Below, piece after piece: positions 4,632-62,467 of a DNA stretch of 64,000 bases (within the stretch, counting starts at the first letter, position 1; every line of letters begins with the position of its first letter). Under the pieces are notes generated by a model. That model was not told the origin of the DNA and did not search any database. It worked only from the letters and a program-made list of their open reading frames with translations. The stretch is taken from assembly GCA_030065755.1 (NCBI GenBank), contig JASJDA010000019.1:233-64232 (forward strand), given 5' to 3'. The translations under genes were made by a program, and so were the position numbers. The stretch is from Prochloraceae cyanobacterium (lineage in GTDB: Bacteria > Cyanobacteriota > Cyanobacteriia > Cyanobacteriales > JASJDA01).

Positions 4632-4683
4632 TTCCCTATCCTCTATAACCCTGTATAACTATAAATAATAACTATTGTTTCCT

Positions 4684-5937: not shown

Positions 5938-5943
5938 CTAATC

Positions 5944-6078
5944 TTATGAATGATTAAATTCTCTTACAATTTGGAAATACTCGCAATAATCTTTAAACCT
6001 TTCATTGACTTCTTCAGCTTTCAAATCGAACTGTTCTAGAGAATAGCGATGAACGCCATGTTTGTGCTGGCGACTTTC
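5944..6078 (-). pseudogene. Possible orphan C-terminal remnant of a sulfotransferase-family gene
   Basis: A 44-codon frame bounded by stops reads ESRQHKHGVHRYSLEQFDLKAEEVNERFKDYCEYFQIVREFNHS. It resembles the conserved C-terminal tail of sulfotransferase-family proteins. It has no start codon. Confidence 0.3.
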
Positions 6079-6097
6079 TTAATGAGTTTAATTTTAT

Positions 6098-16133: not shown

Positions 16134-18575
16134 TCAAATTTTTCGAGATCCTGTTTTATCCATCAATTGCTTGGTTATCTCAAGATAGTTCTCAGTTTGA
16201 TCTATCTGCTTGCTGGCTTCGGGAAGTAAATAACTGAGATTAGATATCAATTGTTCTTGTTTTTCTTTAGATAACTTGCGATCGGCTTGTGTCTGTCTTA
16301 AATTATCTCGATATCTGCAAAGATAAGCATCGAGACGCTTAAAATATTCATTTACTCTCTGCTGAAAATCTGCGTCTATATACTCAGTAATCCCTCGATT
16401 GATAGCATTCACACTTTTTTCAATTTGCTCGTTAATTTGAGTTACTAATTCTGCAAGATAAACAGTATAGTATGTTTCTTTTTTATCTGGCTTTTTGTAT
16501 GTTTCGGTAACTGCAACGGGTACTAACCACAACCAGTGAGTCCACTTTCTCTTTGTAACCATCCGTTTTCCATATCCCCGATCGACCGATCGAGTATTGT
16601 ATTTGACACTAGGTTTATCTACTTCTAGATCCTCAGCTTCTAATGTAGGTGTTGGTAAAACTAAATCTACGTCGAAAGCTTCTTGTAACCTCGACGTGGC
16701 TCTTTGGAGAATTGGTTTAGTCTCTTTTTCCAGAAAATAAGTTAATCCAGTGCGTGCATTTTTTATTTCGCTTTCAGAGTTTTTGCGGACACTATATAGC
16801 AAGCTTTCTGCTCTTTGTTTTGCCCAAGCAACTGCTTGATTAGCATATTCTTGTGCTTGCTCTTCAGTATGACACTCAACTACCCCTTTGGTTTGATATT
16901 TAACAGTAGACTTAAATCTTTGAGAAATCCATTTAGGAAATAATTCAACGTCGCTAATCTTAGTTAATAAAATTTCCCTAGCTTTCATGTCAATTTTTTC
17001 GACTATATTACCTCGATCGTAGTCTTCTTCTACAAAATAATCTTCAATACTAACTTTTGCTTCTTCTTTGAGCTGTTCGAGGATTTCGGTTAAATTGTGC
17101 TGAAGCGATTGTTTAATATTGTCTATTTCTGTTAATCGATTTCTACATAGCTCTAGATGTTTTAAATCTGCTTCTAGCGCCTCTACTTCTGTTTGCAATT
17201 TTTCTGCATCTTGTGAAATTGCCCGATTGCGAAGATTTAAATCGTCTTTTAAAGCTAATAAAAGGTTGCGACAGCGCATAAGTGCAGATTCCATACATCG
17301 AGGAGCGGCGCTTTCCATTAGTGCGGCGATCGCTTTTTCTAAAAAAGGTTTAAAACCAGATTTTTTCCAAAGTCTCTGAGCTTTTTTGTGTAAAATTTCT
17401 AATGTTGCATCTTCTAATTCTTCTTCCCAATCAATACCAAATACTTCTTGGGCTAATGCTTCTGCTGTTGCCATCTCAGAGATATCTACACCAGGATTTT
17501 GCTTTAATTCTAGTAAAAATTTAGTAGCAGAAAATCCTTGTATTGCGGAAATTTCAAAGACTTTATCCATATCGCTAGACTCGCTCAAACCTAAGTCAGC
17601 AAAAACAAACTCTTTGACCTGTTCGGTAGTCATATCACCTTTTCTGCGCTGGTCAACTTTGTTAACCAATACATAAAGGTTTTCTTCTCCTATTAACTCA
17701 ATAACTGGTTGAACTTGTTTTTTAATTTCTTCTGCTGCTTTGTTATTTAGTTGGGTAAAGTCGAGAACAATTAAAACAATAGAACTTCTTTGTAATTCCT
17801 GTTCTACTACTGCTGTTAATTTGAGGTTGTCTCCTGCTTCGTTGGGTCCAGGTGTATCTACAATTACTAAGTTTCCCAATTGTTCCGAGCGATCGCTTCC
17901 TTGAGAACGCCAAAAAGGAGTTTCAATATAGGGAACCTCTCTAAGTCGAGATAGAGGCTCGTTGAGGGGATCTAAACTACTACAAAGACGAACAACATCA
18001 TTTAAACTGGTCAAAACTTTCCCGATTTCTTGGCATCCAGAAACTCGATCGGGAATGACGAAAATATTAGTATTTTTAATTTCCTTAGCTAATTCCATTA
18101 AATGAGGATACTGAGCTAGTTGCTCCTCCATCCACTCAGTTCCCAAGGAGTTAATATGAAGATGTAAACTATTATATGTGTCTAAAAAAACCGAGATAAT
18201 TTCTTCTTTTAGTACTAAAATTGGTTCTGTTAATTCGGGATTAAAGACAATCTTGGTAGGAAGAGTTGTCATTGCTGAATTGCGACTGGGTAAAAGATCT
18301 TGACCGGCGATCGCATTAATAATAGTTGACTTACCAGCTTTCATCGGTGCAACGATCGCCATTCTCAGTTCTAGGGTTTCTACATTCCGAACTGATTCCT
18401 CTATTTCCCTTTCAAATTCTCCGTATTTCTGACCAGAACTATCAGCAATAAAATCGTTTTTGGCACGTTTCATTAGCGTGCCGATCTGTTTTAGCAAGTC
18501 GATAACATCTAATTTTAAATCTTGAATATTACCTTTTATGTCTTTGATTTCAGGTTTTATTTTTGAAGCAACCAT
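16134..18575 (-). CDS. Bacterial dynamin-like protein (large GTPase)
   Basis: 813 aa. G1 APMKAGKST, G3 DTPGPNE, G4 NKVD. A long coiled-coil stalk follows. Confidence 0.85.
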   Translation of the reverse strand: MVASKIKPEIKDIKGNIQDLKLDVIDLLKQIGTLMKRAKNDFIADSSGQKYGEFEREIEESVRNVETLELRMAIVAPMKAGKSTIINAIAGQDLLPSRNSAMTTLPTKIVFNPELTEPILVLKEEIISVFLDTYNSLHLHINSLGTEWMEEQLAQYPHLMELAKEIKNTNIFVIPDRVSGCQEIGKVLTSLNDVVRLCSSLDPLNEPLSRLREVPYIETPFWRSQGSDRSEQLGNLVIVDTPGPNEAGDNLKLTAVVEQELQRSSIVLIVLDFTQLNNKAAEEIKKQVQPVIELIGEENLYVLVNKVDQRRKGDMTTEQVKEFVFADLGLSESSDMDKVFEISAIQGFSATKFLLELKQNPGVDISEMATAEALAQEVFGIDWEEELEDATLEILHKKAQRLWKKSGFKPFLEKAIAALMESAAPRCMESALMRCRNLLLALKDDLNLRNRAISQDAEKLQTEVEALEADLKHLELCRNRLTEIDNIKQSLQHNLTEILEQLKEEAKVSIEDYFVEEDYDRGNIVEKIDMKAREILLTKISDVELFPKWISQRFKSTVKYQTKGVVECHTEEQAQEYANQAVAWAKQRAESLLYSVRKNSESEIKNARTGLTYFLEKETKPILQRATSRLQEAFDVDLVLPTPTLEAEDLEVDKPSVKYNTRSVDRGYGKRMVTKRKWTHWLWLVPVAVTETYKKPDKKETYYTVYLAELVTQINEQIEKSVNAINRGITEYIDADFQQRVNEYFKRLDAYLCRYRDNLRQTQADRKLSKEKQEQLISNLSYLLPEASKQIDQTENYLEITKQLMDKTGSRKI

Positions 18576-21462: not shown

Positions 21463-24400
21463 TCACTCAAAAGGAAGATCTGTAATTGCAAACTTTCTCA
21501 TTTCTTCTTGAGGTAAATTATCTTCAACAATTCTAGTTTTTAAACTTCTTACCATTTTTTCATAGAGATTGCGAACTTCTCTAGCGTTGGCAAAATTATG
21601 TCTGCGATTGTGATACCAATTTAGGAATCTTTTCTTTAATAAATTGGAGACATTTTCGGGAACGATCCAACCATCTTTTTCTGCCATCTTCAGAAAGATT
21701 TGATGGAGTTGTTCGCCAGTATAATCGGGGAATTCTATTTTATAGGCAATGCGAGATTCTAAACCAGAATTAACGCTGAGAAAATATTGCATTTCGCGGG
21801 AGTAGCCAGCAAAGATTACCACGAGACGATCGCGATATTTCTCTAATAATGGGACCAAAGTATCGATCGCTTCAATTCCATAAGTATCTCGATCGCTGTT
21901 ATTTAAAGCATAGGCTTCGTCAAGAAACAATACTCCATCTAACGCTAACTCAACTCCTTGTTTGGTTTTAATTGCAGTTTGTCCTTGATACTGTCCCACT
22001 AAGTTAGTTCTATTTACTTCGTAAAATCCTCCTTTTCGGAGCAATCCTAATGCTTTAAAAATTCTGCCAATCAGTCGCGCAACGGTAGTTTTACCCGTAC
22101 CAGGATTGCCAGTAAATAGCATATGTCTAGTTTCACTATCGTGAATTTGATGACCAGCTTCTAGCAATCGCTGGTTTGCTAATTGAGTATTGATCAATTC
22201 TCGAACTGTAATTTTTACCGAATCAAGACCGATTAAACTATCTAGTTCTTGAAGTAAGCTTTCAAGATTTTCTCGATCTGCTAGATTGCTAGCTATTTTA
22301 TATTCTGGAGGAATATCTTCCACGCTCAACGCGAGCATTTTTTCTCCAGAGAGATTATCCCTAACAATGCGACTCTTGAGTCGCCTTACCATTGCTTCAA
22401 ATAGGTTGCGTACGTTGCGAGCATTGGCAAAGTTTTCATCGCGACTAGTGTAAATATTAGCGAAAACTTGCACCAAATAGTCTGATAAATCTGGCGAGCA
22501 AATCCATCCACTATTTTCACACATACTCAAAAAGATTTGTTGCATTTCATCGCCAGTATAGTCAGAGAATTCAATCTGATAAGCAATGCGAGATTCTAAT
22601 CCTGGGTTGGAATTAATTAACTGTCGCATTTGAGGAGCATACCCAGCAAAAATTACGATCGTACGCTGGCGATAATTTTCCATCAGGGAGATGAGAGTAT
22701 TAACTGCTTCTCTACCGTATTCGTCGTTTTCCCCTTGTATTAGAGCATAAGCTTCATCGACAAACAGAATCCCGTCCAGTGCCGATCGCACAGCAGCAGC
22801 AGTCAGCTTAGCAGTATGTCCTTGATATTGACCTACCAGTAAATCTCGTCTAACTTCAACAAACTGTCCTTTTTTTAAGACTCCCAATTCTTTAAATATT
22901 TCTCCCATCAAAGAAGCAACCGTAGTTTTACCCGTACCAGGATTGCCGATAAATACCATGTGACGGGTTTCGGTTTGATCTACTTTCATACCAACAGTTC
23001 GCAGTCGCTGATTGGCTATTTCAGTATCAACTATTTCTTTGACTACCTGTTTGACTGATGACAACCCTACTAAACTATCGAGTTCTTGTAAGAGAATATT
23101 TAAGGATTTGCCGTTTTGAACTTTGCAGTTTTTGACGATCGTATTGTCTTGAGAATCGAGAGATATTGCTAAATCAGCATTGCCAACAATCTCGCAATCT
23201 TCAATTACTCCTTTGCCATTATCTTTGACGGATATTCCATTTCCTTTGTTGTCATATATTTTACTTTTTTTAATAACAGGATCTGCTTCTAAAGTTATAC
23301 TTATTCCTCCTGCTTTATTAGCAAAAACACTGCAATTCTCTATCAATCCTTTTCCTTTTTCTGCTATTGCTATACCTTGTTTTTCTCCATAAATATTGCA
23401 GTTAATAATGGTCGGATCTGCTTCTGAAGTAATACTTATACCTTTATCTTTATTGTCATATATTTCACAGCTATCAATTATTCCTTGCCCTTTATCTGTT
23501 ACTAATATACCGTAGCTTTTTCCTCCATATATTTGACATTTTTTAATAACTGGATTGCCTCCTGAATTTATAGCAACACCTGGATAAGTATTGCCATATA
23601 TTTCACAATTGTCAATTAATCCTTGTCCGTTTTCTGCTATAGATATGCCATTAGTACCGTTATATATTTTGCATCTTTTGACTACTGGATTGCTTCCTGA
23701 AGTAATAGCAATACCTGGATAAGTATTGCCATATATTTCACAATTTTCAATTAATCCTTGCCCGCCATTTGTTATTAGTATTCCATTGGTACCATTATAA
23801 ATTTTGCATTTTAATATTTTAGATTTTGCTTCTGAAGTAATGCCAATTCCTGGATAAGCATTTGCAAAAATATTGCATTCTTCTACGATAACTTTACTAT
23901 TTTCTGCTATCCATATCCCGCTTTTTTCACTGTCATGAATTTGACATCTTCTAATTATTGCTTCACTGCCATGACTGACTATGATATTTGACAAGCGATG
24001 ATTGTAAATTTGGCAATCTTCGACGATTCCACTTGCGCCTCGATCGAATTTAATTCCAGCATCTGGCCCCCCGTATACTTTGGACTTTTTGAGAATAATT
24101 GTGCCACTATTTTCAACTTTCACCCCCACTCCAACAGACGTAGTAATAAAACAATTTTCTAGTACTAAATTACCTTCATTAATACTTATTACACATTGAA
24201 AATTGTCGCCAACACTAGTACGTTTAGCAAGTAGAGAAACATTTTTAACTATAGCTTCAGTAGTTTGCATCTGAAGGCAGCTAGTTCCTAATCCTTCAAT
24301 AGCAACATCTTTCGCCGAGCCATCGCCGACAATTTTTACAGGTTTATTAATAATAATATTTTCTTTATATAATCCAGGTTTGACTCTGATAGTAGTTCCA

Positions 24401-24504
24401 TTACAAGCCAGAGCAAGTGCTTGACTAATTGTTTGAAAATACGACCATCTTTTTTTAGAGACAACTAGCTCAAGCGGAGCTTGACTAGAAAAAGTTTGCA
24501 TCAT
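21463..24504 (-). CDS. Parallel beta-helix repeat protein fused to two tandem CbbX/SpoVK-type AAA+ ATPase modules
   Basis: 1013 aa. Residues ~40-460 are PbH1-type coils (CxIYxNxxxGIxI). Two paralogous AAA+ units each carry GNPGTGKTTVA (Walker A), (L/F)FxDEAYAL (Walker B) and NARxVRNL. Confidence 0.85.
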   Translation of the reverse strand: MMQTFSSQAPLELVVSKKRWSYFQTISQALALACNGTTIRVKPGLYKENIIINKPVKIVGDGSAKDVAIEGLGTSCLQMQTTEAIVKNVSLLAKRTSVGDNFQCVISINEGNLVLENCFITTSVGVGVKVENSGTIILKKSKVYGGPDAGIKFDRGASGIVEDCQIYNHRLSNIIVSHGSEAIIRRCQIHDSEKSGIWIAENSKVIVEECNIFANAYPGIGITSEAKSKILKCKIYNGTNGILITNGGQGLIENCEIYGNTYPGIAITSGSNPVVKRCKIYNGTNGISIAENGQGLIDNCEIYGNTYPGVAINSGGNPVIKKCQIYGGKSYGILVTDKGQGIIDSCEIYDNKDKGISITSEADPTIINCNIYGEKQGIAIAEKGKGLIENCSVFANKAGGISITLEADPVIKKSKIYDNKGNGISVKDNGKGVIEDCEIVGNADLAISLDSQDNTIVKNCKVQNGKSLNILLQELDSLVGLSSVKQVVKEIVDTEIANQRLRTVGMKVDQTETRHMVFIGNPGTGKTTVASLMGEIFKELGVLKKGQFVEVRRDLLVGQYQGHTAKLTAAAVRSALDGILFVDEAYALIQGENDEYGREAVNTLISLMENYRQRTIVIFAGYAPQMRQLINSNPGLESRIAYQIEFSDYTGDEMQQIFLSMCENSGWICSPDLSDYLVQVFANIYTSRDENFANARNVRNLFEAMVRRLKSRIVRDNLSGEKMLALSVEDIPPEYKIASNLADRENLESLLQELDSLIGLDSVKITVRELINTQLANQRLLEAGHQIHDSETRHMLFTGNPGTGKTTVARLIGRIFKALGLLRKGGFYEVNRTNLVGQYQGQTAIKTKQGVELALDGVLFLDEAYALNNSDRDTYGIEAIDTLVPLLEKYRDRLVVIFAGYSREMQYFLSVNSGLESRIAYKIEFPDYTGEQLHQIFLKMAEKDGWIVPENVSNLLKKRFLNWYHNRRHNFANAREVRNLYEKMVRSLKTRIVEDNLPQEEMRKFAITDLPFE
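23194..23877. repeat. About 135-nt (45-aa) tandem coding repeats x5 within the beta-helix region
   Basis: tggataagtattgccatatatttcacaatt occurs at 23581 and again at 23716. At protein level, CEIYGNTYPG(I/V)AI(T/N)SG...C(K/Q)IY(N/G)G repeats. Confidence 0.8.
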
Positions 24505-28357: not shown

Positions 28358-31171
28358 CTAAACTGGTTGTGCTACCTGGGGTTGGAATTGGAATAACGAA
28401 TACACTACATTACGACGAATGTCAACCATCATTTCCAAGAACATTTCATAACCTTCTTGCTTGTATTCAATTAGGGGATCTTTTTGACCGTAACCTCGCA
28501 AACCGATCGACTCTCGCAAACCATCCATTGCTTGTAGGTGTTCGCGCCACAGGTTGTCAATTTGATTCAAGATAAAGAATCTTTCTGCCTCGCGCATTAA
28601 GCCTGGCTTAATTTGGTCTACTTGAGCTTCTTTAAGATCGTAGGCTTTGCGTACTTCTTCGTGGAGAAAGTTTTTGATTTCGGTAGAGGTGAGGTTGTCG
28701 AGATCGCTGGGTTCTACGTCTTCCATTAGGTAGACAAACTGTATAACTTTCTTAACTAGATTGTCTAGATCCCATTCCTCTGGGGGTAATTCTGGGTTGA
28801 TATAGTAATTAACTATATCGTCCATAGTTTTTTCAGCGTACTCGATCACTTGCTCTTTAAGATCCAAACCTTCTAGTACCCGTCGGCGTTCGGCGTATAT
28901 AGCGCGGCGCTGGTTGTTCATTACTTCGTCGTATTCAAATACCTGTTTGCGGGTATCGTAGTAGAAGGTTTCTACTTTTTTCTGCGCCCCTTCTAGAGAA
29001 CGGGTGAGCATGGGTGATTCGATCGGCATATCTTCTTCAACCTGGAAGAAATTCATCAAACCCGCGACCCGTTCGCCGCCAAAAATCCGCAGTAGATTGT
29101 CTTGTAAACTCAAGAAGAATTTAGTCGAACCTGGGTCTCCTTGTCTTCCTGCACGACCTCGCAACTGGTTGTCAATGCGTCGCGACTCGTGGCGTTCGGT
29201 TCCAATAACGTGGAGCCCTCCCTTTTTGACTACTTCATTGTGTTCTTTACTGGTGTATTCTTCGTATTCTTGGCGAATAGTTTTATATACTTGCCGCAGT
29301 TTTTGAACGACTGGATCGTCTGTGGGAGCATTTTCACTAGCGATCGCTATTTTTTCTTCTGCTTCCAATTCTGGCAAACTTTGCTGACCGTATTCTTGTA
29401 CGGCAAACTTTACTGTTTCTTTGAGCATTCCCTCAGTTTCGGGGGATAATTGTGTGGGGAAAATCTCAGGGGATGCTCGCCAGGTTTTCACCTTTTTCTT
29501 CTCCAGCCCTGGATCGAAGCCTTGAGGTTTTTCTCGCCCTCCCAATGCTGGTATGCTTACTGCTAATTCGTCTTCTTCTGGGCGAACTATTTTAGGCATC
29601 AAATATTCTCGCACCTTCAGCCGCGCCATGTAATCAGCATTACCGCCCAAAATAATATCTGTACCCCGCCCTGCCATGTTTGTAGCTATTGTCAAAGCCC
29701 CTTTCCGCCCTGCTTGAGCAACAATTTCTGATTCTCTTTCTACGTTTTCTGGTCTAGCGTTGAGTAGGTTGTGGGGAATTTTCTTTTGCTGTAGCAGTGA
29801 AGAAAGCAATTCCGATTTTTCTACAGAAGTTGTTCCCACCAACACGGGACGACCTAACTCGTGCATTTCGGCGCATTCTTCTGCTAGGGCTTTCCATTTC
29901 CATTCTTCTTGTTTGTAGACCACATCTGGCAAGTCTCCCCGCCTAGAAGGTAAGTTGGTGGGAATTATAGTGACCTGGAGATTGTATACTTTTTCAAACT
30001 CTGTTTCTTCTGTTTTTGCCGTTCCTGTCATCCCTGCCAGTTTGGGATACAGCAGAAAGAAGTTTTGATAAGTAATAGTTGCCAGAGTCTGAGTTTCTTT
30101 TTGAATGTCCACTCTTTCTTTGGCTTCTATTGCTTGGTGAAGACCGTCACTCCAGCGCCTTCCAGCTAATACCCGTCCAGTAAATTCGTCTACAATTACT
30201 ACCTCTCCATTACGAACGATGTAGTTTACGTCTTGAGTAAATAATTCCTTCGCTTTAATGGCGTTAAATATGTAGTGAGCCCAAGGATTTTCTTGATCGT
30301 AGAGGTCTTTTACATTGAGGAGTTTTTCGGCTTCAGCAAACCCTTCATCGGTCATTATCACGTTGCGGGCTTTTTCATCTACTTCGTAGTGTCCTTGTCC
30401 TTCATTTTCCTCAGTTTCTTTGACGAGTAATTTCGCTATTTCCGCCGCTTTCATGTATTTTTCTGTGGGGCGTTCTACTTGTCCTGAGATAATTAAAGGG
30501 GTTCTTGCTTCGTCAACTAATACTGAGTCTACTTCGTCGATGATGCAGTAGTTAAAAGGACGCTGTACTACTTCTGCGCCAGAGGTTGCCATGTTATCCC
30601 GCAGGTAGTCGAAGCCCAATTCGCTGTTAGTGGTATATGTTATGTCGCAGGCGTAGTTTTTTTTGCGTTCTGGCGGGTTCATTCCTGCTTGTATTAGTCC
30701 TACACTCAGCCCTAAAAAGCGGTGTACTTGTCCCATCCACTCCGCATCTCGCCGTGCTAGATAGTCGTTAACCGTTACGACGTGTACCCCTTTCCCTGTC
30801 AAACCATTGAGATAAGCTGGTAAAGTCGATACTAGAGTTTTTCCTTCTCCTGTTTTCATCTCGGCAATTTGTCCGGAGTTCAGAACTATGCCCCCAAGTA
30901 ATTGCACGTCGTAGTGTCGCATCCCTAAAACGCGCACAGATGCTTCTCTTACTACTGCAAAAGCTTCTGGTAAAATGTCTTCTAGTATTTCTTCTCGTTC
31001 TCGATCGCTTTGGGCTTTTTCTATTTGCTCCCTAAACTCTACTGTCTTCTGTTTTAGTTGCTCGTCAGACAGTTTTTTTATCTCTTCCTCGAAAAGATTA
31101 ATTTCTGTAACTATTGGTTGAAATTTTTTCAGTTTTCGTGTATTAGGATCGCCCAGTAATCTTTTCAGCAT
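28358..31171 (-). CDS. secA: Preprotein translocase ATPase SecA
   Basis: 937 aa. [17 protein letters not shown]-terminus, Walker [39 protein letters not shown]. Confidence 0.97.
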
Positions 31172-41932: not shown

Positions 41933-42667
41933 GTGAAACTATTTGTATATCACACCCCCGAATTAACCCCAACCGATCGCCTACCCGATTGTGCTGTTGT
42001 CATAGACGTATTGCGCGCCACAACTACCATTGCGACCGCTTTGAATGCTGGGGCTGAAGCAGTCCAAGCTTTCAGCGACATAGACAAACTAATCGCAGAA
42101 AGCGAAAAATTACCCCCCGAAAAACGAATTAGAGCTGGAGAAAGGGGCGGTGCTAAAGTGGATGGTTGCGATTTAGGAAATTCTCCCCTAGATTGTACGA
42201 AAGATGTAGTGCAAGGAAGGCGATTGTTTATTAGTACTACTAATGGAACTCGCGCTCTCCAGCGGGTGGAAAACTCACCAGTTGTGATTACCGCAGCTCA
42301 AGTAAATCGTCAAGCAGCCGTACAATATTTGCAACAAAAACAGCCAGAAACAGTTTGGTTAGTGGGATCGGGATGGCAAGGAGGTTATTCGCTAGAAGAT
42401 ACTGCTTGCGCTGGAGCGATCGCCAAATCGATTTTAGAAGAAAAAGGACAATCTAACCCAGAAGCGATCGGTAATGACGAAGTAATTGCGGCGATCGCCC
42501 TTTATTCTCAATGGGAAAATAATTTACTAGAAATGTTTTCCCAAGCAACTCACGGTCAACGCCTGTTGAGTTTAAATTGCGAGGAAGATTTAAAATATTG
42601 CGCTCAAACCGATACCTTAGATATTTTGCCAATTCAGACGCGACCAGGATTTCTAGTTAAAAACTAA
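41933..42667 (+). CDS. comB: 2-phosphosulfolactate phosphatase family protein (ComB-like)
   Basis: [20 protein letters not shown] and GERGG...GCDLGNSP motifs. GTG start. Confidence 0.85.
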
Positions 42668-54332: not shown

Positions 54333-55295
54333 TTATTTAGTGATATAAGCATTCCTTGGTTCTCGAATAAACCTTATGTATAGGTGCTTAAAAGTAGAAC
54401 GTAAAACGCGAGGTAGACCAAAATCGATCGCGATGAGGTTTTCTGGTAATTTCCAGTCAGAAATTTGTAATTGTGCGGGATTTTGCCGAACGAAGTCAAT
54501 CTGAGATAATTGGGAACAAAGTCCTAATCTCGATTGGGCGGCAAGTGTGGGTACGAGATCTGGGTCAACTTTAAGAATTTCTACGATCGCTCGATCGAGG
54601 GCAAAAACGTCCTCAGAGGCTCCTAGAAGGCCTAAAGAGCGAGGTTCGCCCCCGCTAGGTCCATTTCCTTGATGAGCGACAATACCGTCGATAATGGTTA
54701 AATTTGGGGCGATCGCTCGTGCAGTTTCTACTAACATCTCGCCAAAACGGTTGGCATCTTTCCCTGCTTCCATATGCCACCAGGCTTTCATTTTACCTGG
54801 AACGCAGCCAAAAAGGTTTTTCACTCCCATGGTCATTGTTAGCTGCGCGTGGGATTTAATTTTAGGTAGGTTAATTACTACATCTGCATCCATTGCTTCT
54901 TTGGACAAACGCAGGTGGTTGAAGCGATCGCTAGTAGTTTGATAGCGCTTACCGCTAAATTCAACTATGGGTAAGTTTAATTCTTCCATAAAAGAAAGAT
55001 ACCCATTGTTTCTAGCAACTCCTCTAGCACTACCAAATGCTGGACTGTCCCCAAAAAATGGTTTTCCTCCTGCTTCTTTTACGAGTTGGGCAACGCAGTA
55101 AACTATTTCTGGGCGAGTAATACATTCTTTTCCTGGTCTTCCTGCGGTTAACAGGTTGGGTTTGAGGAGGACGCGATCGCCATTTTTGACAAAAGCTTCC
55201 ATTCCTCCCAGAGGTTCTAATAAAGTTTCTATTCGAGAACGCAAACTTTTTACTTCGTAGGAGTCGGCGCGAATTAAACTGACGGTAGATTTCAT
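54333..55295 (-). CDS. DUF362 domain-containing protein
   Basis: 320 aa. VLLKPNLLTA...ITRPEIV...FGDSPAFGS... pattern, typical of DUF362. Confidence 0.75.
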   Translation of the reverse strand: MKSTVSLIRADSYEVKSLRSRIETLLEPLGGMEAFVKNGDRVLLKPNLLTAGRPGKECITRPEIVYCVAQLVKEAGGKPFFGDSPAFGSARGVARNNGYLSFMEELNLPIVEFSGKRYQTTSDRFNHLRLSKEAMDADVVINLPKIKSHAQLTMTMGVKNLFGCVPGKMKAWWHMEAGKDANRFGEMLVETARAIAPNLTIIDGIVAHQGNGPSGGEPRSLGLLGASEDVFALDRAIVEILKVDPDLVPTLAAQSRLGLCSQLSQIDFVRQNPAQLQISDWKLPENLIAIDFGLPRVLRSTFKHLYIRFIREPRNAYITK

Positions 55296-55362: not shown

Positions 55363-56586
55363 ATGCTCCAAGTACTCAAAGTAAGACTATATCCAAACAC
55401 CCAACAGCAACAAGCCTTAAGTCAATCTTTTGGTAATTGTCGCTGGCTTTGGAATTATTGTCTTAATTTGATGAATCAGACTTATATAGATACGGGAAAA
55501 GGCTTATCAGGATATGAAGTTAAAAAGCAAATACCACAACTGAAAAAAGAGTACGAGTGGTTAAAGTTAACTTACTCTCAATGCTTACAGCAGGTTTGTT
55601 TAAATCTCGGTACTGCTTTTAATAACTTCTTTGAAAGAAGAAACAAATATCCTCGTTTTAAATCAAAGCATGGCAAACAATCTATACAATATCCTCAAAA
55701 TGTAAAAAGGATAGAAGATTGTTTAAGGCTACCAATGATAGGGGATGTCAAAGCAGTATTTCATCGAGAAATAGAAGGAAAAATAAAAACTGTAACTATA
55801 TCTAAAAACAAGTCAGATCAATACTTTGCAGCTATTTTATTTGAAGATGGTAAAGAGCAACCTAAATCAAATATCGAGGTGAAAGCAATAGGTATAGACC
55901 TGGGAATTAATCATTTTGCTATCACCAGTGACGGTAACAAATTTGATAACCCCAGATGGCTAGCCAAACACGAACAAAATTTAAAGGTTAAACAACAAAA
56001 ATTATCTAGAAAAGAAAAAGCGCACCGCCTGCGCCGAGGTCTCCTCGGCGTAAAGACGGAGCAAGAAGCATCAAACAACAGAAATAAAGCTAGAAAAGTT
56101 GTAGCTAAAGTACATAACAAAATACGATTATGTCGCTCTGATTTTCATCACAAACTATCGCGCAGGATAGTAAACGAAAACCAAATTATTGTAGTTGAAA
56201 ATCTAGCAGTCTCAAACATGGTCAAGAACCCCAAAATATCTAAGGCTATAAGTCAAGTAGGATGGGGACAATTTTGTACCATGCTTAAATATAAAGCGGA
56301 GGGAGAAGGCAAGGTATATCAAGAGGTAGATAGATTTTTTCCTAGTTCTAAAACTTGTAATGTTTGCCTCAACCAAGTTGATAGTTTGCCTCTTGAAATA
56401 AGATTTTGGGACTGTTCTAGCTGTGGCACTAAACACATAGATCGTGATATTAACGCCGCTAAAAATATCCGAGATGAAGGACTGCGAATTATTTCCTCTG
56501 GGACGGGGGATAAAGCCTATCGCCAAACTGTAAGACTTCGTGCTGGAGGACGCAAGAAATCCACTATTCCGCTAGTTTCTGGGTAG
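55363..56586 (+). CDS. tnpB: IS200/IS605-family (IS1341-type) TnpB RNA-guided endonuclease, solo copy
   Basis: 407 aa. RuvC D (AIGIDLGINHFA), E (IIVVENLAVSNM) and D (DRDINAAKNI). Zinc finger CNVC...CSSCG. N-terminal LKVRLYPNTQQQQAL. Confidence 0.92.
   Translation: MLQVLKVRLYPNTQQQQALSQSFGNCRWLWNYCLNLMNQTYIDTGKGLSGYEVKKQIPQLKKEYEWLKLTYSQCLQQVCLNLGTAFNNFFERRNKYPRFKSKHGKQSIQYPQNVKRIEDCLRLPMIGDVKAVFHREIEGKIKTVTISKNKSDQYFAAILFEDGKEQPKSNIEVKAIGIDLGINHFAITSDGNKFDNPRWLAKHEQNLKVKQQKLSRKEKAHRLRRGLLGVKTEQEASNNRNKARKVVAKVHNKIRLCRSDFHHKLSRRIVNENQIIVVENLAVSNMVKNPKISKAISQVGWGQFCTMLKYKAEGEGKVYQEVDRFFPSSKTCNVCLNQVDSLPLEIRFWDCSSCGTKHIDRDINAAKNIRDEGLRIISSGTGDKAYRQTVRLRAGGRKKSTIPLVSG
56019..56068. repeat. GC-rich palindrome-containing ~50-nt segment in frame inside tnpB
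   Basis: agcgcaccgcctgcgccgaggtctcctcggcgtaaagacggagcaagaag. The core gccgagg-tct-cctcggc (56033-56049) is a perfect hairpin. Local GC is far above the surrounding gene. Confidence 0.6.
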
Positions 56587-56630: not shown

Positions 56631-56787
56631 CAGTCGGGATTATTAACTCTACCTCGCTCCACCACTGATGATAGTTTTGAGGTAATGCTAGATGGTTTGT
56701 TTGTGGCGATCGAACACGTAATGAAGGATGCAAGATGAAAAATTTGAGGGCTATAAAACTTATACAGCGCATTGTTTAGCACGGTTT

Positions 56788-59700
56788 TCACCCTGCCAGC
56801 CGTCGATCGTCTTTCGGTATCTCTCCATCGCGACGGTTGTCCTCTTGCAAGCCATTAATGATAATTTGAGCTAACGCAGAGGCTGCTTCTAGATGAATAT
56901 TGTGTCCCCCTGGGACAAAAAATCGCTTTGCTTGGGGCATGGCTGCTTGTTGCTCTGAGAGATCTTCTTTTTGATTGAAATTGCTTTTATCCCCATAAAT
57001 TAAAGTTGTAGGAACTTTAATTTGTTTTAGTAGACCTAAGTACTGGGATCTACTGAGATTGTTGATGTCAACTCCAATACAAGTACTAAGTAAAGGATCC
57101 CATTGCCAACGCAAGCCTCCGGTGCAAGGTTCAGTAATTCTTTGGGCTAGTTTCATGGCTAGTGACTCAGATAAGACAGGGTTAGCCTTATGCAAGCGTT
57201 CTGCAGCAGTAGCCAAGTTAGGAAAAACATGATGTTTGGGAGGAGAAGCGAGATAGTCTAGATGAGTTGCTATTTGTTCGGCAGTTTCATCGAAACGGAC
57301 TTCTCTCTGTAGTATGGTTTCTACTAATACCAACTCTTTAACCTTCTGAGGACGGGAACTAGCAAATAAAGCAGCAATAACTGACCCAAGAGAGTGCCCT
57401 ATTAAAGTAAAAGGCATGTATGTTAATTTTTCTATTATTGCATCCAAGTCTGCTAGAAAATCGAGTAAGCTATAGGAAGATTGACTCCCTCCATGAGCAG
57501 AGCGTCCGTGTCCCCGCAAATCTGGAGCAACAACCCAGTAGCCTTTTTGGGCTAAACGCTCAGCTAATTCTGACCAAGCTGCCCCTTGGTCGAGAAGGCC
57601 GTGAAGACACAATATTAAGCGTCCAGCTTCTGGTCCCCAACTGCAAAGACATAGATTTAAACCTCGCACTTTCAAAAAATGTTCCTTCATGGTTGTTGTG
57701 GAAGAAGGACCTTTTGCTTTCGAGGGTAATTGGTAATCAAGGGAAGTAGCGACTCGAGCGGCCAAATCTTCGAGTTGGTGAGGCAGTTTAATTTTGTTCT
57801 CAACTTGCTCTAGTGCAGTCTCAATTTGTTTGTGTTGGAGAAAGTTGGAATCTCCAATGGACGTGGATTTGCTGCTGTGAAACCCATCCGTCATTCTCGC
57901 TCCTTCATAAGGTTTGAGTATGGCTGGGTCAAAAGGAATGGCCAAAAATTCACATAAACCCTTCATTAGCTTTTCGGGTTGTACGACTAAATCTTCATAC
58001 CGGATTAGATGATGACGTTTTTGCTCGATTTGTTTGCAGAAATCGCGGATGTTTTGGTTGCTGTTTGCCCAGATATGTTCTGCTACTTTGTAGGAGTCTG
58101 TACGATCTGCATCCACGAGTTTATCGGTTCTCATGCGAACAAAAGACTCAATTACGGCATAAGGATGACGTACTAGGTAAATGTATTTAGCATTTTCAAA
58201 TAAATCTTCTGCTCTTTCCAAAGTCTGTCTATGCATTCCGTAGGTAGTAGATTTATCCACCAGTATGCGATCGCCTGCTAGATTCTTCAGCATGGCATAG
58301 ATTTCATAGATGGAAACGTCATCTGCTATTAGTTGCTTAATCAACTCTTGGCTGGCACGAGAGTCAATTCCTTTTAATTCCCTTAAAGCTCGCTGCAGTC
58401 CATCTTCAAGATAAGAGATATCCACTTCTGGCTGCCTTTCGCTCATGGTATTAAAGGGTAATAAGTGCAATTCTGGAGGAGAAAATATAGAACAATGTCT
58501 TGCTAGCATTATTCTTAGTAAGTTAGACCCAGATCTGGGACTAGAAAGAATAAATGCCATGCCAGTAAGTTTTTTTCCCATACTGACACTGGAGGAAGGG
58601 GGGGACGTAGGGGAGAATGGGATACTCGTGGAGAAGGATAATTTTTGCTTCTGCTGACTTTTGACTTGAATATGGGTGCGTTCAAACTCACTAACTAGAT
58701 ATCTCGCCAGAGAATGAATTGTGGGTCGCTTGTATAATTCTTGCGCATATAACATTAATCGTAAATCGCGCCCTATTCGATTAATTGTTTCCACAACCAT
58801 CAACGAATCTATGCCTAAATCCAGCAAACTATCGATTAACTGAATTTGCTCTGGGTGCATTTGTAATGTAGCCGAGATTAAGTTTTTTAAATAAGAATTT
58901 AAAAATTCCTGCCGTTGAGAGGATGACATTTTCAACAGGGAAGTAAATATTTGTGTTTGTGGAGCTGCTGGTTTAGCTGCTAATTTTTCTCGATCCTGTT
59001 GAACCGATATTTTCAGCAATTCCGACACGAGATTGACTTGTTCTGGAGAAAATTTGCCAGTTTTTTCTAATTGTTGAGCCAACTGTTGGGGATCTGGAGT
59101 TTTCCGCCAATCCGCAATGGTTGGGGTCTGACTTTCGCAAGAGGAATAAGCGAATTTTTGGCTTGCATTTGCTGAAGTCTCCACCCAATACCGTTGCCTT
59201 TGAAAGGGATAAGTGGGTAAGACAACTTTATTACGGGGAAGATAGGCTTCAAAACTCCTCCAATCCACTTTTACCCCTGCCACATATAACTCAGCTAATG
59301 TCTCTAAGATCTGCTGCCAATCTTCTTTTCCTGGGCGTAAGGAAGGCAACCATTTTGCTTGGCGATCGTCGGGGACAGATTGGCGTGCCATGCCTAATAA
59401 TACTGGTTTTGGACCGATCTCGACGAATAACTCGTAACCTTTCTCGGCTAAAGTCTCAATTGCTGGAGCAAACAGCACTGTCTGACGAATGCGATCGCAC
59501 CAGTATTCGGGAGTGGCGATCTCTCTATCTACTGGATCTCCTGTGAGGTTAGAAATTAATTCAATTTTGGGTTGTTGATAGTTTATTTGACTGGCTATCT
59601 GCCGAAACTCAGCCAACATTGGCTCCATCAGAGGAGAATGGAAAGCATGAGAAACTTGTAGTTTAGTTGTTTTAATTCCTGCTTCAGTTAAAGTCTGAGT

Positions 59701-61884
59701 TAAAGTTGCTATAGCTGAAGTTGTGCCAGAAATAACTATAGCTTCGGGTGCATTGACTGCGGCGATCGCAATTTCTTTATCTAAGTGATACTTCTCGATC
59801 GTACTTTGAATCGTCTCTGCACTAGCTATCACTGCTCGCATTTCCCCATTAGGAGGCAATTGCTGCATGAGGCGACCTCTATGGGTCACTAGTTTCAGTG
59901 CTTCGGCGAGAGAGAAAACCCCAGCCAGGGTAGCAGCAACATATTCTCCTAAACTGTGACCGACCAACCCATCGGGTTTAATCCCCCAGGAGATCCACAT
60001 CTGAGCCAGGGCATATTCTAAGGCAAAGAGGGCTGGTTGAGTGTAAGCAGTTCGATCGATAAGTCGATCGTCTCGATTTTCAGGATAGAGAATAGAAAGT
60101 AGAGATTGCTCTAATTCCCCACGGAGGAGGCGATCGCATTCATCAATTGCTTGGCGGAATGTGGGTTGAGTCAGATAAAGTTGTTTGCCCATATTTGCAG
60201 ATTGGCAACCTTGTCCCGTGCATAAAAAGGCTATTTTCGAGCTTTCCTCTTTAGCTTTACCTGTAATTAAACCACTGGCTCGATCGCCTGCTAAAAAGCT
60301 TTGAAGTTTTTCTACTAATTCCCCACGAGACACGCCAGTAACAGCTAATCTATGTTGAAAATGAGTCCGTCCAGTATTAGCTGTAAAACAAATATCTGCC
60401 AAAGATTCCGATCCAGGCGATTGTAGAAAATCCTGATAGTTTTGAGCTAAATCCTGTAAAGCTTCTTTTGTCTTAGCGGTAATAGTCAGTATTTTTAAAG
60501 GATGTTCGTCAGCTTTGTGTGGAGAGACTGCCGACTCTGGTGCTTCTTCTAGGATTACGTGAGCGTTAACGCCACCAATACCGAAACTACTAACACCCGC
60601 ACGACGAGGAATATCTTTACCAGTCTCAGTTTTTAACTTCTGCCACTCTTGAGTTTCTTCAACAATATAAAAAGGGCTATTTTCGAGTTTAATCCGAGGG
60701 TTTAATTGCTTAAAATTAACGATTTTAGGCAACTTTTTATGCTTCATTGCCAAAACTACTTTAATTATTCCGGCAATGCCAGAAGCGCCTTCCAAATGTC
60801 CGATATTGGTCTTAACTGTTCCTAGACCGCAATAGGGTTTATCAACTGAAGATAAATCGTACTTTTGATGTAATTGTCTAAATGCTCGTTTGAGACCATT
60901 AATTTCTATTGGATCGCCTAAGGGCGTGCCTGTACCGTGGGCTTCGATATAGGAAATCGTATTGGGGAGGACATTAGCTTTTGTATAGGCGTCGCAAAGC
61001 ACTTGTGCTTGACCATAAACATTGGGAGATGTCAAACTTCTTGCTCTTCCACCATGATTTACTGCACTCCCTCTAATCACTCCGTAAATATGGTCTTCAT
61101 CTTCAATGGCCTTAGCTAGAGGTTTTAATAAAATTAATCCTGCTCCTTCTCCACGTACATAGCCGTCAGCCTCGCTGTCAAAAGCTTTGCACTGTCCTTG
61201 TGGAGACAACATCCTTAATTGGCTCATTTGAATGTATCTCGTCGGCGTACAGAAAATACTCACTCCACCTACGAGTGCCATGTTACATTCCTGTTCCTTC
61301 AAAGCATTTATAGCTTGATGGATTGCTACTAGCGAACTCGAGCAAGCTGTGTCTACAGGAATACTGGGACCGCGAAAATTGAAAAAGGAAGAAATACGAT
61401 TGGGGATCATGCAAGTCCAAGTTCCAGTCCCAGCGTGTCCGTTAGTGTATTGTTGATACCCATTTTGCAAAAGATCGTAGTCATAGTTACACGCTCCGAT
61501 AAAAACACCAACAGAACTTCCAGATAGTTGAGACGGTGGATATCCAGCATCCTCCAAACATGACCAACTTAGCTCCAGCATCAGCCTCTGCTGAGGATCC
61601 ATTCGTTGTGCTTCCCGAGGAGAGATGCCGAAAAATTTGGCATCGAATTGGTCTATCCCCTCAATAAACCCACCCCATTTACTAATACTTTTATTTTGCT
61701 CTTCAGGATTAGAAGAATAATACTTTTCAACTTCCCATCGCTCACAAGGAATTTCACTAATACTATTGATTTCTTCTTTTAAATTTTGCCAAAACTGTTG
61801 GTAGTTATTTGCTCCTGGAAATCGACAAGCCATACCAACAATAGCAATTGACCCAATCTTCTCTTGTTCTACATAGTCGGACAT
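56788..61884 (-). CDS. Type I polyketide synthase, KS-AT-ACP-sulfotransferase-thioesterase (no KR, no loading domain)
   Basis: KS aa ~12-447 (DTACSSS Cys181, EAHGTGT His316, NIGHLEGASG His363). AT aa ~551-880 (GHSLGE Ser644, HAFH). Post-AT motif YPFQRQRYW at aa 892-900. ACP LGIDSL Ser1027. ST aa ~1105-1385 (SSPRSGSN, PPELHLL, RHPYAVIES). TE aa ~1400-1680 (GHSLGS Ser1498, GGHNIH). Confidence 0.92.
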   Translation of the reverse strand: MSDYVEQEKIGSIAIVGMACRFPGANNYQQFWQNLKEEINSISEIPCERWEVEKYYSSNPEEQNKSISKWGGFIEGIDQFDAKFFGISPREAQRMDPQQRLMLELSWSCLEDAGYPPSQLSGSSVGVFIGACNYDYDLLQNGYQQYTNGHAGTGTWTCMIPNRISSFFNFRGPSIPVDTACSSSLVAIHQAINALKEQECNMALVGGVSIFCTPTRYIQMSQLRMLSPQGQCKAFDSEADGYVRGEGAGLILLKPLAKAIEDEDHIYGVIRGSAVNHGGRARSLTSPNVYGQAQVLCDAYTKANVLPNTISYIEAHGTGTPLGDPIEINGLKRAFRQLHQKYDLSSVDKPYCGLGTVKTNIGHLEGASGIAGIIKVVLAMKHKKLPKIVNFKQLNPRIKLENSPFYIVEETQEWQKLKTETGKDIPRRAGVSSFGIGGVNAHVILEEAPESAVSPHKADEHPLKILTITAKTKEALQDLAQNYQDFLQSPGSESLADICFTANTGRTHFQHRLAVTGVSRGELVEKLQSFLAGDRASGLITGKAKEESSKIAFLCTGQGCQSANMGKQLYLTQPTFRQAIDECDRLLRGELEQSLLSILYPENRDDRLIDRTAYTQPALFALEYALAQMWISWGIKPDGLVGHSLGEYVAATLAGVFSLAEALKLVTHRGRLMQQLPPNGEMRAVIASAETIQSTIEKYHLDKEIAIAAVNAPEAIVISGTTSAIATLTQTLTEAGIKTTKLQVSHAFHSPLMEPMLAEFRQIASQINYQQPKIELISNLTGDPVDREIATPEYWCDRIRQTVLFAPAIETLAEKGYELFVEIGPKPVLLGMARQSVPDDRQAKWLPSLRPGKEDWQQILETLAELYVAGVKVDWRSFEAYLPRNKVVLPTYPFQRQRYWVETSANASQKFAYSSCESQTPTIADWRKTPDPQQLAQQLEKTGKFSPEQVNLVSELLKISVQQDREKLAAKPAAPQTQIFTSLLKMSSSQRQEFLNSYLKNLISATLQMHPEQIQLIDSLLDLGIDSLMVVETINRIGRDLRLMLYAQELYKRPTIHSLARYLVSEFERTHIQVKSQQKQKLSFSTSIPFSPTSPPSSSVSMGKKLTGMAFILSSPRSGSNLLRIMLARHCSIFSPPELHLLPFNTMSERQPEVDISYLEDGLQRALRELKGIDSRASQELIKQLIADDVSIYEIYAMLKNLAGDRILVDKSTTYGMHRQTLERAEDLFENAKYIYLVRHPYAVIESFVRMRTDKLVDADRTDSYKVAEHIWANSNQNIRDFCKQIEQKRHHLIRYEDLVVQPEKLMKGLCEFLAIPFDPAILKPYEGARMTDGFHSSKSTSIGDSNFLQHKQIETALEQVENKIKLPHQLEDLAARVATSLDYQLPSKAKGPSSTTTMKEHFLKVRGLNLCLCSWGPEAGRLILCLHGLLDQGAAWSELAERLAQKGYWVVAPDLRGHGRSAHGGSQSSYSLLDFLADLDAIIEKLTYMPFTLIGHSLGSVIAALFASSRPQKVKELVLVETILQREVRFDETAEQIATHLDYLASPPKHHVFPNLATAAERLHKANPVLSESLAMKLAQRITEPCTGGLRWQWDPLLSTCIGVDINNLSRSQYLGLLKQIKVPTTLIYGDKSNFNQKEDLSEQQAAMPQAKRFFVPGGHNIHLEAASALAQIIINGLQEDNRRDGEIPKDDRRLAG

Positions 61885-62467
61885 AAATTTTAGATGCTGT
61901 AGTTTTATAAATTATCCTGAAAGCGTTTAGCACAGATATAAATGATTAGTTTTAGATTTTTTTTATATTTAGACAATATTTAAATATCCTAATCGAATTT
62001 GGTTGTATTTTACAAGTAACTATTTTTAGTACACGACGCAATACAATTGTACTTTAAAAACCAACGATAAGACTTTTTATCAGCAAAATAGTGGGTACGA
62101 TCGCACAAACATAAAAATAAGTATATTCTGGAAACAAAAGAATGTAAAAAACAACTATGGGGTCGTATATTAATAAAATTCAATCAGTATTATAATGATT
62201 GTTTATAAAAAGGATTGTAGAACAATCATCACACATTCATCATTCATAACTGCCAGTTTACTTTTGTATTGCAGACTACGCTTAAAGGAAAGAGATGATG
62301 GTATGGAGCAAGGGGTAGCGATCTAGATATTTTCTGATTTTAGCCGAAGGTCAAAAGTTACATAGCCATTGTATTGATGTGAGATTGTTGAGAGATGCTT
62401 CTTCATTTATCATAGTCAACAATACTAAAATAGAAACAGTTCTAAGCTTTCTTTACTGGCGTGCTCA

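Follow-up and report, generated by a model that had tools for sequence, protein, structure and literature searches.

The DNA analyzed here, referred to as the window, is a stretch of 64,000 nt of contig JASJDA010000019.1 from an uncultured Prochloraceae cyanobacterium. Our subject is a single gene on its minus strand, which encodes a polyketide synthase (PKS) of type I, composed of ketosynthase (KS), acyltransferase (AT), acyl carrier protein (ACP), sulfotransferase (ST), and thioesterase (TE) domains; the protein belongs with the ST-TE offloading modules of the olefin synthases (Ols) and of CurM, the terminal module of curacin A biosynthesis, but it contains no ketoreductase (KR). The gene is one intact open reading frame (ORF) of 1698 codons with an ATG start, and its parts are the following (aa numbers refer to the encoded protein; PAPS, 3'-phosphoadenosine-5'-phosphosulfate).

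56788-61884, minus strand: whole ORF, KS-AT-ACP-ST-TE type I PKS without KR (Pfam, solved-structure matches, second assembly L083)
60712-61851, minus strand: KS (aa 12-391), with Cys181, His316, and His363 present (Pfam, motifs)
60283-60702, minus strand: KS-AT linker (aa 395-534; Pfam)
59269-60228, minus strand: AT (aa 553-872), malonyl type (GHSLGE with Ser644, HAFH at 746), normally conserved (Pfam, motifs)
58984-59268, minus strand: post-AT linker YPFQRQRYW and a conserved helical-looking element (…DPQQLAQQLEKTGKFSPEQVNLVSELLKISVQQDREKL), aa 873-967 (alignment)
58981-58986, minus strand: KR-deletion joint between codons 967 and 968, …REKL/AAKPAAPQ… (comparison with relatives)
58696-58983, minus strand: pre-ACP linker and ACP (aa 968-1063), with Ser1027 present (Pfam, motifs)
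57703-58587, minus strand: ST (aa ~1100-1394), CurM/Ols ST family (solved-structure match)
58522-58524, minus strand: ST codon 1121, Asn, last residue of the PAPS 5'-phosphate loop (56-homologue alignment)
58246-58248, minus strand: ST codon 1213, Thr, adjoining the Lys-Ser pair (DKSPTY changed to DKSTTY; 56-homologue alignment)
56857-57693, minus strand: TE (aa ~1398-1676), CurM TE family (solved-structure match)
57079-57081, minus strand: TE codon 1602, Cys, aligned with the last Arg of IIRTR in the CurM TE (alignment)
56788-56853, minus strand: C-terminal tail of 21 codons plus stop, without counterpart in the nearest relatives (comparison with L001/L090)

The domain content was established with Pfam and with a search of solved structures. 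Besides the KS, the KS-AT linker, and the AT, whose limits are those listed above, Pfam recognized PP-binding (aa 998-1063), Sulfotransfer_3 (aa 1111-1320), and Abhydrolase_1 (aa 1423-1667) in the C-terminal half. Residues ~1100-1394 aligned end to end with the CurM ST (4gbm; E = 5e-101) and residues ~1398-1676 with the CurM TE (3qit; E = 2e-92); the Ols ST structure 4gox was matched as well. No KR or adh_short domain was found by Pfam anywhere in the 1698-aa protein, and a motif scan detected no GxGxxG/A between aa 880 and 1000. As only 125 aa separate the AT from the ACP and every other residue is assigned, a hidden KR fold is impossible. An earlier reading of this DNA made from the letters alone (the sequence-only reading) had described a stand-alone KS-AT-ACP-ST-TE synthase without KR, and both this description and all of its motif positions (KS C181/H316/H363; AT S644 in GHSLGE and HAFH 746; YPFQRQRYW 892-900; ACP S1027; ST SSPRSGSN 1114 and PPELHLL 1136; TE GHSLGS 1496 and GGHN 1659) proved exact. 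The protein has only 11 residues ahead of the KS core and no docking region.

The linker between AT and ACP is closely similar to that of natural cyanobacterial KS-AT-ACP modules, including proteins of Anabaena and of Microcoleus anatoxicus. Within it, at window positions 58984-59190 (aa ~900-967), lies the post-AT element, of about 45 residues and of the form (N/D)xxQLAQxLEKxGKFSPEQxxLLPxLLxxLxxQHQ, which is also present in L091, L094, L015, L019, P0271, P0275, P0346, and the first gene of L088. It is placed ahead of KRs, ahead of ACPs in KR-less modules, and, in L088 gene 1, at the C-terminal end of a KS-AT protein. No relative of this element was found among solved structures by sequence, and it may represent a dimerisation or docking element.

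The same 1698-aa gene is present in an independent metagenome scaffold from ENA (L083), from which it differs by one nucleotide (gene nt 1363, Pro455Ser). The upstream DNA is identical in both assemblies, the same insertion sequence (IS) element follows downstream, and a 3-nt indel is located in the spacer past the stop codon (window 56660-56670). Mis-assembly of the window gene is unlikely, since L083 has the same gene, upstream DNA, and IS element, although the two assemblies may derive from one sample. The L083 scaffold terminates inside the transposon-associated TnpB gene of that element, as expected of a repeat.

The C-terminal half of the gene had its closest relatives in L001 and L090, a pair of metagenome contigs with a mutual identity of 99.6%, and the window shares 87.6% nucleotide identity with them over 2135 nt without gaps (77% at the protein level). 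Immediately upstream of the shared part, both encode the C-terminal end of a KR (…GNYAAANAF…). Similarity at the DNA level begins abruptly at window codon 968 and ends just as abruptly at nt 56852, the position of the relatives' stop codon, past which the window gene reads through 21 unrelated codons. The canonical counterpart L091, verified with Pfam as FAAL-ACP-KS-AT-ψKR-KR-ACP-ST-TE (~2850 aa), is 73% identical to the window protein in ST and TE, and its AT-KR stretch is 65% identical to window aa 884-968 (YPFQRQRYWIETSEDESQKVAYSS…NTQQLAQRLEKVGKFSPEQVNLLPEMLEVLVKQHRCQL); the pre-KR element is shared by L094. When the flanks were placed side by side, the joint fell at …VQQDREKL/AAKPAAPQ…, where the post-AT element meets the pre-ACP linker. 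Residues 1636-2141 of L091 (506 aa, ψKR plus KR) are missing in frame from the window protein, and this stretch opens with TxATxxD(C/W)FYQVxW, where the ψKR starts, and closes with …LSELVRETKSI behind the catalytic KR. The canonical Ols L003 matches the window protein over aa 739-1648 and 2108-2882 only (gap aa 1649-2107), and the comparison with L015 shows the same KR gap. All these factors taken together indicate that the window gene is a mosaic and arose by deletion from an Ols-type olefin synthase, the whole KR having been excised precisely in frame, and that a gene of the FAAL-ACP-KS-AT-KR-ACP-ST-TE type was the ancestor of its post-AT element, ACP, ST, and TE. A deletion derivative had been one of three explanations offered by the sequence-only reading, and it is the one borne out by the KR-bearing nearest relatives (L001/L090 and L091) and by the absence of exactly 506 residues.

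Regarding the relatives themselves, the L001 and L090 contigs come from two different metagenome assemblies (GCA_013332675.1 and a sister assembly, JAAUYG) and both break inside the C-terminal part of the KR, a short inverted copy of KR sequence standing at the start of L001 (L001:1-139). These features suggest either faulty assembly or a polymorphic site. The Ols-type gene of L001 adjoins a gene of the sodium:sulfate symporter family (L001:3382-5028), which may be linked to the supply of sulfate for PAPS.

The N-terminal half of the protein has a different affiliation, one that the sequence-only reading overlooked, and with it the mosaic nature of the gene. KSs of ST-TE modules are 56-87% identical among themselves, whereas identities between the window KS and these KSs, that of L091 included, reach only 44-54%. 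Higher identities (71-82%) were obtained with the KSs that start KS-AT genes (L086, P0393, L087, and others) of marine filamentous cyanobacteria (Symploca, Moorena, Okeania). In neighbour-joining trees the window KS grouped with this N-terminal "starter" KS clade (95-98% bootstrap), beside trans-AT-type KSs and far from the Ols clade. Identity to L086 amounted to 70-88% from aa ~120 to at least aa 630, the end of the L086 contig; beginning with the post-AT region, the window protein is closest to its Ols relatives. A KS from a non-Ols clade is thus joined to Ols-like C-terminal parts, and the window gene is therefore a mosaic. In L085 and L088 a KS-AT gene of the starter type opens a PKS made up of several genes, and the later modules of L085 are close relatives of the CurM-like ST-TE line L019.

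Relatives within the KS clade of the window gene are often visibly damaged. L084 carries frameshifted KS-AT pieces (L084:9757-12459); in gene 1 of L085 (L085:1978-4640) half of the AT is missing and an ACP-like domain comes next, in which LEYS replaces DSL; the KS of L087 is truncated to a stub of 310 aa (L087:10001-10933) beside Tn7 and integrase genes; and L168 (L168:4188-5879) is truncated to a KS without AT, with an AMP-binding fragment upstream.

In order to estimate how rare the KR-less architecture is, loci with relatives of the ACP-ST-TE part were taken from species-representative genomes and from metagenomes, and their domains were mapped. Both collection scans are samples and not a census, and the genome scan used a generic hydrolase pattern; the protein index was searched by short segments and returned proteins below ~1400 aa or 800 aa, so that full architectures were rebuilt from the loci. 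A KR stood directly before the ACP in 39 of the 41 ST-bearing PKS loci with a visible upstream side among the matches listed, the two KR-less exceptions among them being L083, which is the window gene's own copy, and L022. In a library of representatives at 50% identity every ST-bearing match examined had a KR except P0146. L022 (L022:384-4763; metagenome-assembled genome "bacterium BP4.bin29") has the order KS-AT(dead)-ACP-ST-TE, its AT being shortened with GYGVG for GHSxG, and its KS begins with an N-terminal docking-like helix. P0146 is a 6260-aa PKS ending in …KR-ACP-KS-(no AT)-ACP-ST-TE (terminal module aa ~4250-6260). From their architecture, both are probably non-elongating terminal transfer modules, sulfonating a β-hydroxyl inherited from the preceding module. 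Among the matches listed, a KR-less ST-TE module with an intact AT occurs only in the window gene, and a metagenome scan with the junction peptide, together with one for PFQRQRYW, yielded no second KR-less orthologue among the matches listed. Conservation of the KR-less architecture in orthologues finds no support here: the nearest relatives carry a KR, and the window form is a singleton among the matches listed. Five length-matched candidates (P0130, P0138, P0144, P0179, and P0267) from the representative library were fragments with the order AT-KR-ACP-ST-TE, cut at the N-terminus. The literature searched on ST-TE synthases and olefin synthases contained nothing resembling a KR-less ST-TE synthase, and one paper that bears on the point reports only Ols genes in which the FAAL is separated from the PKS portion.

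The same set of loci brought out a gene encoding a DUF6208 protein (~318 aa, hydrophobic N-terminus), which stands directly behind the ST-TE gene in 18 of the 28 loci with more than 1.5 kb visible downstream (for example L002:2186-3139 and L091:12182-13147; further loci listed are L004, L007, L012, L013, L015-L018, L020, L021, L023, L025, L046, L093, L095, L097, L099-L101, and L105). In L001/L090, the nearest relatives of the window gene, it is reduced to a remnant of 41 aa, and it is absent from the window. No mention of DUF6208 was found in the literature searched and it has no NCBIfam name; it looks like an unrecognised partner of Ols/CurM-type synthases.

The constraint acting on the protein differed among domains. 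At columns conserved in at least 90% of the homologues, the window protein deviated in 2 of 121 columns of the KS, 3 of 92 of the AT, 2 of 15 of the ACP, 12 of 89 of the ST, and 2 of 51 of the TE. Deviations were significantly more frequent in the ST than in KS plus AT (P = 0.0004), and in ACP-ST-TE (16/155) than in KS plus AT (5/213; P = 0.002). The median homologue has about three deviating columns in each of the three alignments (KS, AT, and ACP-ST-TE together), and over ACP-ST-TE only two distant non-cyanobacterial homologues deviate more than the window protein. Two of the ST changes, T1121N at the end of SSPRSGST and P1213T in DKSPTY, affect residues that are invariant in 56 of 56 homologues, and in four others (Gly1129Arg, Met1168Arg, Pro1346Ser, and Trp1362Glu) the residue replaced is present in 54-55 of the 56. 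In the ACP two near-invariant residues are altered, and LYPRE has become LYAQE. In the TE, Arg1602, present in 54 of 56 homologues, is replaced by Cys; this position presumably corresponds to Arg205 of the CurM TE, a proposed sulfate contact, if the deposited chain has three extra N-terminal residues. On the other hand, the ST retains Arg1117 in the phosphosulfate-binding (PSB) loop, Glu1138, His1140, Lys1211, and Ser1212, as aligned with the CurM ST, and the TE retains its Ser1498/Glu1522/His1661 triad. The statement of the sequence-only reading that all catalytic motifs look intact thus holds for the directly catalytic residues but not for the PAPS loop, with its Asn for Thr, for DKSTTY, or for the Cys of the TE.

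Tested for relative rate against the sister P0001 (six outgroups), the window protein had 60 lineage-specific replacements and the sister 19 (P = 4e-6), the window lineage having evolved about three times faster. By domain, the numbers (window:sister) were 10:0 for the ACP, 25:5 for the ST, and 24:14 for the TE, the last not being significant. The dN/dS ratio against L001/L090 was 0.41 at a dS of 0.27, which, with dS divided evenly between the two branches, would mean roughly 0.6 for that of the window; for the KS, dN/dS against L086 was 0.10, at a much greater, saturated depth. Neutral decay sufficient to account for the excess replacements would predict 3-7 stop codons in ACP-ST-TE, with a probability of about 0.001-0.03 of finding no stop, and none is present over the 5.1 kb, nor any indel with respect to L001. 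In the ST taken by itself an open frame would be expected in any case, since any stop in it would remove the TE as well. These patterns indicate that the KS, the AT, and the catalytic core of the TE are under ordinary purifying selection and that the ST, and to a lesser degree the ACP, has been loosened; the ORF appears too intact for plain neutral decay.

The surroundings of the gene in the window were examined with an ORF map and tblastn. The neighbouring features are the following.

61885-62467, no strand: AT-rich non-coding region of 583 nt upstream of the PKS gene (ORF map, tblastn)
55363-56586, plus strand: IS200/IS605-family TnpB gene, convergent with the PKS gene and lying between it and the DUF362 gene (also in L083)
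54333-55295, minus strand: DUF362 gene, co-oriented with the PKS gene (NCBIfam, conserved cyanobacterial "Npun_F2552 family")

Upstream, the ~580 nt of AT-rich non-coding DNA followed by a divergent PAS sensor gene that had been read from the sequence were recovered as 583 nt and a divergent multi-PAS gene beginning at 62468. A scan for promoters and terminators gave nothing above chance, its one promoter-like match on the minus strand (62148-62120) not exceeding chance for the region. Beyond the DUF362 gene there are genes for an inorganic pyrophosphatase, NdhM, a PP2C-domain protein, a peptide deformylase, and two glycosyltransferases, and elsewhere in the window genes for SecA, ChlB, a Mur ligase, and a glycogen debranching enzyme. 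The PKS gene stands alone in core cyanobacterial chromosome, and no biosynthetic cluster surrounds it. No remnants of FAAL, loading ACP, or KR were detected in the 64 kb by tblastn with full-length canonical Ols proteins, no SDR (short-chain dehydrogenase/reductase), FAAL, ACP, or phosphopantetheinyl transferase was found among the ~39 other window ORFs scanned, and the window holds no DUF6208 remnant. The FAAL-ACP loader is therefore absent from the 64 kb; the sequence-only reading had noted that the gene has no such loading region. The DUF362 protein, which that reading had put forward as a possible reductase partner, is indeed co-oriented with the PKS gene, but the two are not adjacent, since the convergent TnpB gene intervenes; it belongs to the Npun_F2552 family, is separated by the IS element, and is absent from other ST-TE loci among the matches listed, so that this role finds no support. 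Considered as an equivalent of the DUF6208 gene found behind other ST-TE genes, the DUF362 gene was discarded, there being no similarity between the two.

A second IS200/IS605-family TnpB gene is located at window positions 863-2113 (minus strand), and neither TnpB gene has a TnpA gene nearby. Three further genes with no evident tie to the PKS encode a 1013-aa protein in which right-handed β-helix repeats are joined to two AAA ATPase domains (21463-24504, minus strand), a dynamin-family GTPase (16134-18575, minus strand), and a 2-phosphosulfolactate phosphatase homologue (41933-42667, plus strand). SecA (28358-31171) has no relative at 90% identity or more among ~15 billion proteins, and the source is a poorly sampled cyanobacterial lineage.

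With these results in hand, the window protein is best compared with the systems from which it can be distinguished by one or a few features. With Ols of the Synechococcus/Picosynechococcus sp. PCC 7002 type (L091, L003, L007, L025) it shares an ACP-ST-TE part of the Ols clade (identity up to 68-73% in the TE and up to 59-73% in the ST), the post-AT element (65% in L091/L094), a malonyl-type AT, and the catalytic residues of ST and TE; it differs in having no KR (506 aa with respect to L091), no FAAL-ACP loader within the 64 kb, and no DUF6208 neighbour, in the other clade of its KS, in the loosened ST, and in the loss of the TE Arg. CurM (KS-AT-KR-ACP-ST-TE) provides the best solved-structure match for both ST and TE and, like the window protein, starts with its KS and lacks a FAAL loader. 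In contrast, CurM contains a KR and ends a multi-module line, the CurM-like modules of L015 and L019 are only 46-47% identical to the window protein in ACP-ST-TE, and in the window protein the loop Thr is replaced by Asn, the Pro behind Lys-Ser by Thr, and the conserved TE Arg by Cys. L022 and P0146 also have ACP-ST directly behind the AT region without KR, but in them the AT is inactive or missing and a β-hydroxyl can be inherited, whereas the window AT is intact and there is neither an upstream module nor a docking region. Of the features of ST-TE alkene modules, KS and AT with their active-site residues, an ACP Ser directly before the ST, and the Ser-Glu-His triad of the TE were found; a KR in cis to furnish the β-hydroxyl for sulfonation and the conserved lid Arg of ST-associated TEs were not, and neither were the features of Ols proper, namely a fused or adjacent FAAL-ACP loader and an Ols-clade KS. 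The KR-less deletion derivative is a variant of the Ols/CurM ST-TE offloading modules, which the window protein would resemble most in its working and from which it descends. In the biosynthesis of anatoxin-a, the KS-AT-ACP module AnaG and the thioesterase AnaA release their product as a β-keto acid, whose decarboxylation gives a methyl ketone. The same effective set (KS, AT, ACP, hydrolytic TE, and no β-processing) is predicted in the window protein, which differs in that its TE, an α/β-hydrolase of the CurM type, is fused in cis to the C-terminal side of a sulfotransferase domain.

The reading we favour, to which we assign a probability of about 0.5, is that the window protein works as a KS-AT-ACP-TE with a vestigial ST, releasing a β-keto acid that gives rise to a methyl ketone, and that the canonical sulfation and decarboxylative alkene formation has been lost. 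The module would condense malonyl-ACP with an acyl primer supplied in trans, a two-carbon extension yielding β-ketoacyl-ACP. Lacking a β-hydroxyl, this intermediate would leave the ST without anything to sulfonate, and, since the TE follows it, the ST would be retained as a spacer that keeps the frame. The TE would only hydrolyse the thioester, and the released β-keto acid would decarboxylate to a methyl ketone (2-alkanone) in place of a 1-alkene. Given the loosened constraint on the ST, the gene seems to derive from a known enzyme, whether re-purposed or decaying, and not to embody a new mechanism. The suggestion in the sequence-only reading that the chemistry may differ from the canonical one, methyl ketone formation being one of its examples, may hold to this extent, while an elaborate new ST chemistry is disfavoured by the loosened ST (12/89) and the lost TE Arg.

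Several points weigh against the vestigial-ST reading. The ST retains every residue aligned with directly catalytic or PAPS-binding residues of the CurM ST and may still be active, and its changed second-shell residues could reflect adaptation instead of decay; the fast evolution of the ACP could equally reflect adaptation to the new KS and AT or to a trans-acting partner. The sulfate-contact role of Arg205 is a proposal made for the CurM TE. No FAAL or ACP that might supply the acyl primer is found within the 64 kb, and the gene is known from a single population, represented by two near-identical assemblies that possibly come from the same sample. No close relative covers the KS-AT part, L001/L090 breaking inside the KR; the exchange of the KS and the loss of the KR may have been one event or two, and KS-AT evolution may also have sped up recently.

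Alternatively, the gene could be a young pseudogene, in which the pathway ended when the KR was deleted and the loader and the downstream partner gene were lost, the ORF not having been broken yet; we regard this as an unlikely outcome, though one to be taken seriously. It would agree with the singleton architecture among the matches listed, with the position of the gene alone among housekeeping genes and beside an IS element, without FAAL, ACP, KR, or DUF6208 in 64 kb, and with the raised dN/dS (0.41) and 3:1 rate excess. The abrupt cut of homology to the nearest relative at both ends, the 41-aa DUF6208 remnant of the sister lineage L001/L090, and the frequent degradation among relatives of the window KS clade (L084, L087, L168, and gene 1 of L085) point in the same direction. 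Decay, however, should be uniform, and the loosening is domain-specific (5/213 in KS plus AT against 16/155 in ACP-ST-TE, P = 0.002), with a near-normal TE; moreover, the intact ORF is common to both assemblies, and no stop or frameshift has appeared in 5.1 kb where 3-7 stops would be predicted in ACP-ST-TE by itself. A maintained ORF and retained catalytic residues in ST and TE would also be expected if a FabG or other SDR encoded elsewhere reduced the β-ketoacyl-ACP in trans, ST and TE then making a 1-alkene as in Ols and CurM. FabG yields the same (3R)-hydroxy configuration that the ST uses, and the rapid changes in the ACP could reflect its fit to such a partner. Unchanged chemistry should nevertheless conserve the ST and the TE Arg, and yet 12 of 89 conserved ST columns deviate, two of them at positions conserved in 56/56, and Arg1602 has become Cys. 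No SDR is encoded among the ~39 ORFs scanned within the 64-kb window, the DUF362 protein has no link to ST-TE loci, and the KR is kept in cis by 39 of 41 natural ST modules among the matches listed, all of which makes a reductase acting in trans rather improbable.

Two further explanations retain sulfate chemistry. The window protein might be a non-elongating terminal module whose KS passes on a β-hydroxyacyl chain from a KR-containing protein encoded elsewhere, for offloading by ST-TE, which is the pattern of both other natural KR-less ST modules found (L022 and P0146). In these, however, the AT is dead or missing, whereas it is intact and normally conserved in the window gene; L022 has a docking-like helix and P0146 a KR-ACP in cis, while the window KS starts 11 residues in, with no docking region, and belongs to a clade found in the first gene of clusters and not in the last. 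As the loosened ST and the Arg1602Cys replacement also speak against retained sulfate chemistry, we consider this very unlikely. Less credible still is a new ST-TE chemistry on the β-keto or enol form, in which enol sulfation, hydrolysis, and decarboxylative loss of sulfate would lead to a terminal alkyne, or a sulfated product would be released. A change of substrate would likewise leave the catalytic residues of the ST in place while altering the invariant residues around them, and the ORF is maintained; but such a reaction is without precedent, the loss of the conserved TE Arg speaks against any sulfate-dependent offloading, the changes adjoin PAPS-contacting residues (the PSB-loop Thr and the Pro behind Lys-Ser) and do not lie in an obvious acceptor pocket, and the lineage is a singleton, with no conserved orthologues among the matches listed.

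These findings concern one uncultured population known from sequence, and the gene could be on its way to loss. In the event that the enol chemistry were true, it would constitute a new biosynthetic route to alkynes, derived from an olefin synthase by the loss of one domain. For PKS engineering, the joint offers a guide to a site where in-frame removal of a KR leaves an open and apparently selected gene. If active, the protein would lead on its own from an acyl primer to a methyl ketone, having evolved from an enzyme that makes alkenes. The gene may be viewed as a natural knock-out of one step that shows the selection acting on the domains depending on the KR, with the ST loosened and the TE Arg lost while the KS, the AT, and the TE core appear to have been kept.

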